Below are positions 39,001-42,000 of a stretch of DNA of 64,000 nucleotides, in pieces (the first letter of the stretch is position 1; each line of letters starts with the position of its first letter). The stretch comes from a virus. Its lineage: Duplodnaviria; Caudoviricetes. Position numbers: made by a program. The stretch covers positions 118,987 through 182,986 of IMG/VR virus record IMGVR_UViG_3300021387_003827; one strand, written 5' to 3'.

Positions 39001-42000
39001 TCTATAAATTTTTCTCGTTGTTTTCAAAGATCCGGTATATGTATGAGAACTATAATCATAAAGAGATTTAATTCTCATGTGATTTTGAATAAGATCTTTG
39101 ACATAAGATATAGTGTCGTTTGAATAGTGCAGCCTAGAGAGAATAATTTCTGCCATATCAGCGCTATATAATTCATGAAGGTGATATGAAAAATGACCGT
39201 CTGGCTCTACTTTATGATTCCTATATTTGGATATATCGTGAAGAAGGGCCGCTAAACGTAACTCTAGTTCTCTATAATTCACTCTTGTTTCTGATACTAT
39301 ACTTAAAACACTAAGAAGGTGTTCAGATAGTGTCATTGAGTGGTATTTGGAGTTCTGATTGAAATCCCAGCCTTCTTCAAGTTCAGGAATTATATTTTCC
39401 AAAAGACCAGAGGCATGAAGATCTCTGATTGCACCAACTGGATCATCAGAAGTTAGCATTTTAGAGAACTCATCATTTATCCTCTCTTTAGATAATTCAT
39501 AATACTCCTTGTAGGGCTTAATCTTTTCAAGAACGAATGGCATTATTGTAAATCCTTTCTGATAAGCAAATCTAAAAGCCCTTAGCATTCTTAAAGGATC
39601 ATCTCTAAAGGTCAATTCTGGATCAAGTGGAGTTCTTAAGACTTTATTTTTCACATCTTCAATCCCATAACCCGTCGGATCTAAGATTTCTTCAGTAACT
39701 ACATTCATATACAATGCATTACAACAGAAATCCCGTCTCTTTGCATCTTCTTGAATTGATGTATACTGGATAGAGTCTGGCTTTCTTGGTCCCTCATTGT
39801 AAGATTCTGTTCTAGGAATCACACACTCTATGTCAATTGGACCGGAGGGAAGGATAAGAGAGAATTTTGCAGTACCATATCTAAGATACACAACAAAATC
39901 TTTAGTTACCTCTGACCAATTTTTCTTAAGATATTCCATAAAGTCGGCAGATCCAGTCGGAGAATCTATACACAGATCTATATCTTTTATTTCCCTCTTG
40001 AGGATAAGGTCACGTACTGCTCCACCAACCATGTATACATCCTTATCTTTTCCCCAAGAAATAACTATTTTCTTTAATAAATTTAATGCTTGATTATATA
40101 TTAAATCTGTCATATCAAATATAAGAAAAATAAGATACCTAGAACCCATTTCTGAATTCTAGGTACAATCTCCTAAGCAGCCATGATCAAACAGCCGCGG
40201 TATAACTGCAAAACCGCTACACCCCGAAAGGTGATAAACTTTAACCATGGATTTTGTCTATCTTTAAGTCTTAAGCTTATAATCTTTTTCTGGTTCATGA
40301 GCTTTAAACTTTAAACTTTCTAGCTTTTATCTTTAAGCTTTCATCATCATTAAATAAACGTAGTGCTTTTCAACAACACTAAGATGAATAACTTTAATTA
40401 TAAAGCTAACAGGCTTTGTTTTTACCTCTCATGCCTGCGTTAAATATGAGGGCGTTATTTTTAGCTATTTTCGCTTAAGTATTGGTTTTGAATATATATA
40501 AAGGATAGCCTATTATATAGTGATTAATCATCGACGTCGATGAATGTTGTAGAGTTAGACTCAGACAACGCGAAATCAACATTTGTGTTAAAATCTTGAA
40601 TTTCTTTCTCGAGTGCTTGGATCTTATCACTTAGGCTGATCGGATCTACAAAACTAACTTCGTAGAGCTTCTCCATACTTTCCAAAACCTTCTTTTCGAC
40701 TTCAGGATCCTTAGACGCACCAGCAGTGGTCATATTTTTCACCTGTTCGTCAATTCGTCTACGATTTTCTTCCTCTGCATTATCGTATTCCCTTTGAGCC
40801 TTTGTTTGCAGGTTCTTCATGAAATTGAGGCGGTCTTCCTTGAAAATTATATTATTCTTCATAATCAGGGCTTCCTCAACAGTCATTTCCTTGTCGCCGA
40901 TCTTGACCATAGTCACAGCATTAGATTTCTCAACCTTCACCTTTATCTGGTGAATTCGATCTTCCAATGCAGTAACCTTCTGCCATTGTTCTTTTGCTTT
41001 ATCAGCAAAATCTTCCGGCTTCATAGAATTATTTGGACTACGAAGTTTGCTTCCATGCTTTACAGCAATAAGGTTAAGTTTTCTAACTTCACTAGAATAT
41101 CTAGCCTTGAGTGTTTTGAGCTCACTGAGAGCCCTAGTAATCGTATACTTCATAATTATCTTTGAACTTTTGTTATCGTATCGAATTTAGTGGTCCGATT
41201 CAAACGGACTATTCTCATCTAATATAAGAATTTGAGCGGTTTGTCCCTCTTAAGCCTACTCACTAAACTCATGGTTGGAGTGTTGAAAAATAATCACCTT
41301 ATAGGCCAGACCGAATCATTACGATTCTTCTCGGTAACTTACGTCCTCTCGTCCCTAAGATCGCAACCTATATTACATAAGCTGCGACGACCCATAATGT
41401 ATAAAATAATATATGAATTTTGTGTCTCGAAATTGGCTATTTATTAGGGGTGGGACTTGTTATTTCAGAGATTAATCCCACCCAAACGTTTTGTTATGCC
41501 TACTTACAAATCGTTCATATATAAGAATTTGGGCGCTTTGTTTTTCTTATAGATGATATGAATATAGCGTTAGTAGCACACGACAGTAGAAAGAAAGAAT
41601 TAATTGAGTGGGTAACATATAATCTAAATGAGCTTAAGAATCATAATTTATATGCTACCGGAACTACTGGAAAATTGATTAGTGAAGTATCATACGCCGA
41701 CTGTCTTGATGAAGATGGAAATATTGTCAGAGGAATTGTACGGCATTATCCGTTTAAGGATAAAATTACTTGCCTTCATTCTGGTCCTCTTGGTGGAGAT
41801 GCCGAAATAGGTGGAATGATTGCAAATGAGAAAATAGATGTCCTGATATTTTTCTGTGACAATCTAATTCAGCAAGGTCACCAGAATGATATTTATGGAT
41901 TAACTAGACTTGCATCTCTATATAACATAGCATTTGCAACAAACCGTACAACCGCTGACATGATTCTTACATCTCCATTATTTAAAGATCCAGAGTATAA

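Follow-up and report, generated by a model that had tools for sequence, protein, structure and literature searches.

A gene for a 209-amino-acid (aa) helical protein in a tailed-phage genome is followed, on the same strand, by a 308-nucleotide (nt) structured RNA that holds a tract of 7-nt repeats. Both lie in a 64,000-nt stretch of the IMG/VR virus record IMGVR_UViG_3300021387_003827 (Duplodnaviria; Caudoviricetes; positions 118,987 to 182,986), which we call the window. Our analysis confirmed that this is a real, conserved, and covarying structured RNA and that it is strictly linked to the gene upstream of it. We judge the chances to be about even that gene and RNA are the two parts of a self-contained module whose product is a ribonucleoprotein. 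A closed RNA domain behind the gene had been proposed from the letters of the window (hereafter the sequence-only reading), and every pairing proposed there was found where it had been placed.

The long-range helices P1, X1, Y1, and P5, together with an H-type pseudoknot in the 5' part, form a closed, multiply pseudoknotted core (Table 1). The core pins both ends of an ~84-nt tract of 11 to 12 UNAAAGN heptamers, within which no conserved pairing was found. The RNA has a minimum free energy of −74.3 kcal/mol (z = −3.0). Tandem Repeats Finder returned a period of 7 at the tract, and the string AAAGN3AAAGN3AAAG occurs twice at the locus versus 0.04 times expected. The heptamer array of the sequence-only reading stands, whereas its count of six units plus about four degenerate ones had to be revised to eight plus four.

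The helices are supported by compensatory changes among homologs. For the closing stem P1, a count of contiguous pairs starting at fixed anchors in 26 non-redundant homologous loci gave a mean of 13.8 when the strands were cognate and of 1.8 when they were not, and in the window's subfamily five of the seven pairs show compensatory changes. The P5 helix, AAAUCCAUG/CAUGGCU, is paired in 97.8% of cells in an alignment of 37 sequences. Changes on both sides occur there in 42 cells versus 12.1 in shuffles (0 of 500), the covariation score is 0.618 versus at most 0.108 in slid controls, and UA, AU, CG, and GC are all seen at both central positions. The hairpins that P5 encloses covary within the subfamily as well: hairpin 1 has the variants CACUG/CAGUG, CAUG/CAUG, and CUC/GAG, and the GCGG..CCGC hairpin also varies in a compensatory manner.

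X1 and Y1 emerged from RNAalifold on the nine closest elements and were assessed with position-restricted tests, which replaced a generic longest-helix test that proved noisy. X1 has eight pairs, six of them with compensatory changes, and is 97% paired in the subfamily alignment; no permutation in 10000 reached its cognate versus non-cognate difference. Y1 is 100% paired and conserved within the subfamily and covaries between subfamilies (8 of 10000 permutations), with the variants UUCAAUC/GAUUGAA and UUAAAUU/AAUUUAA and, in phage T5, AUCUUAC/GUAAGAU. For the 5' pseudoknot, a per-locus shuffle test had low power in AT-rich sequence (6 of 25 loci at p <= 0.05) and was replaced by a comparison of cognate and non-cognate strands. 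In 21 loci the GCAGGC/GCCUGU pairing between loop and downstream strand scores 16.6 for cognate versus 9.4 for non-cognate combinations, above all 10000 permutations. Over the nine-element alignment the whole structure is 94.2% paired, with double changes at 22 of 35 pairs versus 11.5 +/- 2.0 after shuffling (0 of 500). Its covariation score of 0.583 compares with 0.201 for shuffled alignments and no more than 0.11 for slid controls.

The same architecture lies on the gene's strand behind almost every homolog, including those of phages T5, GAP31, Av-05, pVp-1, and My1, about 80 IMG/VR contigs, and 37 loci in bacterial genomes; covariation is seen at every helix over dozens of unrelated phages. 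Its 5' half consists, in order, of the P1 5' strand and GAAA, the 5' strands of X1 and Y1, the H-type pseudoknot followed by GUUAAA, and a variable insert. Its 3' half consists of the heptamer tract, GAUAAAAUCC-NNN, one or two hairpins, and NNN-GGCUG with the P1 3' strand. The sequences of the helices diverge freely among loci with complementarity retained. The tract is the most conserved sequence feature: in an alignment of 34 sequences, T and A columns recur without variation every 7 nt, and the consensus is alike in phages of Proteobacteria, Bacillota, and others. The number of heptamers has a median of 11 and is mostly 11 to 12, arranged as 7+4, 8+4, or 7+5 or in a single run of 11 to 12, and in most loci the tract ends 6 nt ahead of AAAUCC.

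The linkage of gene and RNA holds in both directions. When IMG/VR was scanned with a pattern for the RNA only, each of the 30 genuine matches was preceded on its own strand, at a distance of less than 700 nt, by the protein gene; the other 87 of the 117 matches were chance hits in GC-rich coding DNA that lacks heptamers. Two loci seemed to be exceptions. In the first (L051) the RNA lies 0.3 kb downstream on the same strand. In the second, Bacillus phage KLEB27-3 (OM634661.1), it lies ~1.0 kb downstream, again on the same strand, with three small open reading frames (ORFs) in between, one of which is annotated as a GepA-domain protein. In every lineage examined, gene and RNA are neighbors with a common orientation and so could be carried on a single transcript. 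P1 begins 5 to 8 nt past the stop codon in the T5 and Bacillus copies, and therefore co-transcription with the gene appears to be the rule. In Bacillus safensis FO-36b and Bacillus sp. FJAT-42315, gene and RNA occur as a lone pair with its own terminator, among genes for an amino-acid permease, Ig-like proteins, a GNAT enzyme, and a chemotaxis receptor (MCP); hence, both parts travel as an autonomous unit. The genome of the window contains a single copy of the RNA in its 183 kb, according to a search with R1, a covariance model that describes only the 3' domain of the RNA.

Two homologs (L015 and L025) have no recognizable element ~100 to 330 nt past the stop codon; a long purine-only repeat (GAGAGAAGGAAAAAA or GGAAAAG units) is found there instead, flanked by inverted copies of a sequence of ~70 nt. 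The gene was also seen on three IMG/VR contigs labeled as giant-virus metagenome-assembled genomes (GVMAG-...; L017, L027, and L052). The RNA follows the gene in L052 and lies ~420 nt downstream in L017, and L027 has no recognizable element. These contigs may be misbinned phage, or the pair may reach beyond phages.

The window protein matches phrog_1491 over its full length (E 6.5e-54; residues 2 to 208 on profile positions 4 to 210 of 211). By tblastn the protein is present in 739 phage records at ~30 to 36% identity, namely in T5-like Demerecviridae, rV5-like Vequintavirinae, and phages of Vibrio, Pseudomonas, and Bacillus, and a profile search with the family collected 3057 clusters at 50% identity. 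Close relatives in IMG/VR were not found with the single protein as query; the family alignment A1 did find relatives there. The T5 member, T5.085, is annotated as "tail fiber protein" in the T5 record. We saw no basis for this label and regard phrog_1491/T5.085 as mislabeled, because phrog_1491 genes sit in early or tRNA regions. The AlphaFold model (pLDDT 89) consists of long helices and a small beta-sheet built from the termini and a hairpin. The protein is predicted to form a homodimer, the one oligomeric state that we addressed: ipSAE is 0.59, whereas the highest value among three controls is 0.00; the runs have at least 86% of their contacts in common, and the partner pLDDT is at least 85. 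The ipSAE mark used was reached by 20 of 30 solved homo-pairs and by 1 of 23 single chains.

The sequence-only reading had noted a resemblance of the protein to the DIP1984 family. At the level of fold and profile this is correct. The top Foldseek match of the model is PDB entry 3KDQ (E 2e-3), an uncharacterized protein of Corynebacterium diphtheriae, which we take to be DIP1984 itself. VIA aligned 151 of 152 residues with it (Z 11.5, root mean square deviation 6.8), with the next match at Z 7.6, and the A1 profile retrieves 3kdq_A from the PDB with an E of 0.005; 3KDQ is the sole outstanding structural relative. Membership in the family did not hold. The window protein has no match in Pfam (E <= 0.01) or NCBIfam, where NF038048 is absent even at E <= 10, and neither it nor anything else in its genome reaches the curated cut-off of NF038048 (70 bits). 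Among 29 homologs, 5 match NF038048 weakly and 2 match PF20935. No family is matched by more homologs than NF038048, one other is matched by as many, and its best E (0.001) is the lowest of the list. In sum, the kinship of the window protein with the DIP1984 family (NF038048/PF20935) is real but remote, lies at the level of the fold, and does not amount to membership. The two share the overall fold, weak profile similarity, and a conserved structured element 3' of the gene; however, DIP1984 proteins have ~150 aa instead of 209 aa, the window protein scores nothing on the family models, and the DIP1984 element has a GYGAGGGYGGG motif and no heptamers.

That element was found behind true DIP1984 genes, defined as those above 70 bits with NF038048, which occur in 15 of 301 sampled Bacillota genomes. 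All 13 Bacillota loci examined have it within 190 to 270 nt 3' of the gene, in the motif order GGUAGC .. GGCGAG-helix .. ACUACC-helix-UGA .. GYGAGGGYGGG-N3-6-GGG. One helix covaries (AGUACG/CGUACU, AGCAC/GUGCU, AAUGUC/GACAUU, and GACAUG/CAUGUC), and the genes downstream of the element all differ among loci. It contains no heptamers and has no match in Rfam. At a Deinococcus DIP1984 locus (L243), neither an AAAUCC-type motif nor AAAG repeats were seen in the GC-rich downstream DNA, which was not scanned for GYGAGGGYGGG. The statement that AAAG repeats follow such genes in bacteria is right for phrog_1491-type genes, mostly of Bacillota, but not for true DIP1984 genes, which carry this other element. 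The arrangement of a protein with an adjacent RNA holds across the DIP1984/T5.085 superfamily, and the presence of a structured 3' element in both branches raises the odds that the proteins work with their adjacent RNAs. The DIP1984-linked element itself looks like a second uncatalogued RNA associated with this protein superfamily.

The RNA is frequently part of tRNA operons. Of 44 phage loci, 23 have tRNA genes within 2 kb, all on the strand of the RNA, and in at least six loci a tRNA starts 4 to 13 nt past P1. At three loci a complete tRNA (Ser, Phe, and one with an unclear anticodon) is embedded in the variable region. If RNase P and RNase Z cut this tRNA out, the RNA would be left in two pieces that P1, X1, Y1, and P5 hold together. 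In view of this context we infer that the RNA is made and processed along with the stable RNAs of the phage. The sequence-only reading also pointed to a CCA-adding enzyme next door, and this gene does adjoin the RNA locus; its adjacency is particular to the phage of the window, whereas tRNA genes are what the RNA is generally associated with. Both the setting in tRNA operons and the CCA-adding enzyme point loosely to the biology of translation or of RNA-based defense.

How might the module work? The RNA would be transcribed with the gene, often within a tRNA operon, and trimmed like a stable RNA, its 3' end presumably being set by the RNase P cut at a following tRNA or by a terminator. The predicted dimeric protein with its DIP1984 fold, made from the shared transcript, would then bind the RNA. 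We favor the possibility that, by the logic of TRAP, HutP, and CsrB, about six dimers occupy pairs of heptamers (12 sites) and, with the RNA core, form a particle of fixed stoichiometry. Such a particle might intervene in translation or at the level of tRNAs during infection, or it might be a decoy for a host defense that targets RNA, a guess from the genomic context. The massive covariation of the RNA, the conserved 3' element of true DIP1984 genes, the fixed number of repeats, their fixed distance to P5, the two-way linkage, the autonomy of the pair in Bacillus, the predicted homodimer, and the tRNA context are in favor of the module. Several points weigh against it. The protein is acidic to neutral (isoelectric point 5.9), and Pfam and NCBIfam scans found no RNA-binding domain of a known kind in it. 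A dimer by itself leaves the 11 to 12 sites unexplained. The DIP1984-type element lacks heptamers, so the superfamily, if it shares one mode of RNA binding, may read the folded core and not the repeats. The adjacency of gene and RNA is equally expected of an autoregulatory 3' untranslated region (UTR).

It is rather unlikely that the RNA serves a partner from the host. The heptamer tract would then be a multivalent sponge or decoy for a conserved host RNA-binding protein, a ribonuclease, or the anticodon loops of tRNAs, and the upstream protein would be merely co-expressed or a chaperone. A heptamer consensus that is identical across phages of Proteobacteria, Bacillota, and others would suit a host target, as would the location in tRNA operons with, in this phage, a CCA-adding enzyme adjoining; moreover, the absence of heptamers from the true DIP1984 element means that the repeats need not be the site of the protein. 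However, the two-way linkage and the lone Bacillus modules are hard to square with an irrelevant protein, and the explanation names no candidate host factor. An improbable explanation is a cis-acting 3' UTR: the RNA would be part of the mRNA for the protein, would serve in stability, localization, or autoregulation, and would not be a separate functional RNA. The short distance from the stop codon to P1 in the T5 and Bacillus copies and the terminator after the RNA are what one would expect of a 3' UTR. Nevertheless, ~300 nt with at least three pseudoknot-type contacts and a fixed 12-unit tract are far beyond known 3' stabilizers, three ORFs separate gene and RNA in KLEB27-3, and embedded or abutting tRNAs imply processing to a separate stable RNA. 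An element that acts as DNA (an iteron-type origin, a packaging site, or an array for a transcription factor) is hardly tenable, for although short AT-rich direct repeats resemble iterons, compensatory changes keep five long-range helices on one strand, G-U pairs included, the orientation is fixed relative to the gene and the tRNAs, and chromosomal copies exist outside a prophage context.

Beyond the two-part module itself, we put forward, tentatively and as somewhat unlikely, that all DIP1984-fold proteins, both phage T5.085 and bacterial DIP1984, are dedicated partners of 3'-adjacent structured RNAs. Protein and RNA would then make up a class of two-gene ribonucleoproteins that is widespread but has gone unrecognized. 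For the phages this would mean that the knotted core presents the 12-site tract, which would assemble about six dimers into a particle that is made with the phage tRNAs and acts on host translation, the tRNA pool, or a defense that targets RNA.

We found no characterized family that covers the RNA. No Rfam 15 covariance model, from a set that covers tmRNA, RNase P, 6S, Y RNA, GOLLD, ROOL, and skipping-rope, reached its gathering threshold on the window RNA or on 20 further loci, among them the T5, GAP31, and Bacillus copies. IMES-3 (RF02036) scored 21.7 bits of the required 55 (E 0.067) in the window only and was absent from 14 related loci at E <= 10, a chance match, and ARAGORN found no tmRNA. 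In the T5 RefSeq record the site of the heptamer RNA carries no annotation, although "stable RNAs of unknown function" are listed elsewhere. In the literature on T5 stable RNAs, T5.085, DIP1984, phage structured RNAs, and RNAs of tRNA clusters we found no description, with the limit that older scanned T5 papers are not searchable; a preprint on skipping-rope and tLRNA deals with other RNAs.

Several known systems bear a partial likeness to the gene-RNA pair. TRAP reads 11 (G/U)AG triplets in the trp leader, and HutP reads NAG triplets 4 nt apart, a 7-nt period, on hut mRNA. The heptamer RNA has evenly spaced short repeats as well, in 11 to 12 units with a 7-nt period that are conserved in number and phase. 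However, TRAP and HutP are beta-rich rings that act in 5'-leader attenuation, whereas the protein here is a helical bundle with a predicted dimer, and the repeats, which it would presumably bind, are located in a loop, the RNA itself being knotted, stand-alone, and encoded 3' of the gene. CsrB and RsmZ are sponges with many short motifs per RNA, each pair of which binds one protein dimer, and 12 heptamers for six dimers would be analogous. Yet CsrB has GGA motifs in hairpin loops and no knotted core and is not encoded beside csrA; motif and fold are unrelated. The module of Rsr (Ro60) with Y RNA or YrlA, found in bacteria and phages, likewise has a protein gene followed by an end-paired structured RNA on one strand and an association with tRNA-like RNAs, but Ro is a HEAT-repeat ring, a different fold, and Y RNAs have no heptamer tract. 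Matches to RF02553 (Y RNA) were all below the threshold and on or among neighboring tRNA genes.

GOLLD and ROOL are often near tRNA genes in phages and prophages, and they share with the heptamer RNA a large, intricate structure with no assigned function in such a location. They are larger, without a dedicated adjacent protein gene, and their Rfam models do not match the heptamer RNA. A preprint describes them as large ornate RNAs that form RNA-only multimers (bioRxiv 10.1101/2024.12.08.627333). A ToxIN-like type III toxin-antitoxin system was rejected, for the RNA here follows the gene, its repeats measure 7 nt and lie within a knotted RNA, and the protein has no Pfam family at E <= 0.01. In ToxIN the repeat RNA is upstream of the gene for an endoribonuclease toxin, and the repeats have ~30 to 40 nt.

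Rfam and genome annotation have apparently missed an RNA of ~300 nt in which five or more long-range helices covary, although it occurs in a textbook phage, T5, as well as in rV5-like phages, jumbo phages, and the chromosomes of Bacillus. Its loop with a fixed 12 heptamers on a knotted core represents a new design for multivalent recognition. If the particle exists, it would provide the first functional handle on the DIP1984/T5.085 superfamily and a new class of phage ribonucleoprotein seated in tRNA operons. The protein family that accompanies the RNA comprises more than 3000 clusters and is mislabeled "tail fiber".

Table 1. Positions of the RNA and its parts, of neighboring features in the window, and of related features at other loci (positions preceded by a locus name refer to that locus)
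Feature	Positions	Strand	Remarks
Structured RNA	40172-40479	-	308 nt, from P1 5' strand to P1 3' strand
P1 5' strand CUUAAGC	40473-40479	-	pairs with P1 3' strand; conserved GAAA next
P1 3' strand GCUUAGG	40172-40178	-
X1 5' strand AAAUAGCU	40463-40470	-	immediately past the conserved GAAA; X1 is a long-range helix crossing P5 (pseudoknot)
X1 3' strand GGCUGUUU	40189-40196	-	directly ahead of P5 3' strand
Y1 5' strand AUAACGC	40452-40458	-	partner strand is GC(A)GUUAU, in the hairpin 2 loop
5' H-type pseudoknot	40409-40450	-	stem CUCAU (40450-40446)/AUGAG (40432-40428); loop GCAGGC (40438-40433)/GCCUGU (40414-40409)
Variable region	40350-40408	-	hairpins here; a whole tRNA in some other phages
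Heptamer tract	40261-40349	-	~12 UNAAAGN units in two in-phase runs (8 + 4)
P5 5' strand	40246-40250	-	CCAUG of the conserved AAAUCCAUG
Hairpin 1	40220-40233	-	CACC-UUUCGG-GGUG
Hairpin 2	40197-40217	-	GCGG...CCGC; conserved loop UUUUGCAGUUAUA holds the Y1 3' strand (40209-40202)
P5 3' strand	40181-40185	-	CAUGG of the conserved CAUGGCUG
Intrinsic-terminator-like hairpin with U tail	40135-40166	-	14 pairs, then CUUAUUUUUC; 6 nt past P1
Promoter-like site TCGACG-17-TATAAT	40512-40540	-	at the end of the gene, ~25 nt ahead of the RNA; consensus match only
Gene of the helical protein (209 aa)	40524-41153	-	ORF; phrog_1491/T5.085 family, DIP1984-like fold
CCA-adding enzyme with HD domain	38332-40149	-	adjoins the RNA locus
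ClpB/ClpC-like ATPase	35668-38277	-	neighboring gene
MGS-like gene, radical SAM gene, 319-aa ORF		opposite	neighbors
RNA of phage KLEB27-3	L003:~4962-5345		inside a 1.1-kb unannotated stretch (4531-5638)
Embedded tRNAs	L028:2700-2774, L041:2758-2835, L056:2710-2784
DIP1984 elements (loci L244-L257)	e.g., L244:1287-1491, L246:1292-1491, L255:1276-1485	-

The record has a total of 182,986 bp with direct terminal repeats, and the window is its right-hand third, AT-rich and with phage-type genes. The ~375 nt after the ORF of the 209-aa protein hold only short mechanical ORFs, and the terminator that the sequence-only reading saw behind the RNA was recovered there as a terminator-like hairpin. On the other side, a gap of 400 nt without long ORFs (41154-41557) separates the gene from the divergent MGS-like gene.

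Two observations concern stable RNAs near other copies of the pair. In a phage tRNA array beside one gene-RNA pair, ARAGORN reports a tRNA with anticodon UUA, which would read UAA stop codons (L053:768-840). In the T5 record a 719-nt "RNAX, stable RNA with unknown functions" is annotated next to tRNA-Arg (L260:349-1067; NC_005859 40848-41566, minus strand), ~1.6 kb from the T5 copy of the heptamer RNA, which lies at NC_005859 ~43142-43504 on the minus strand. RNAX is thus a further unexplained stable RNA in this region.

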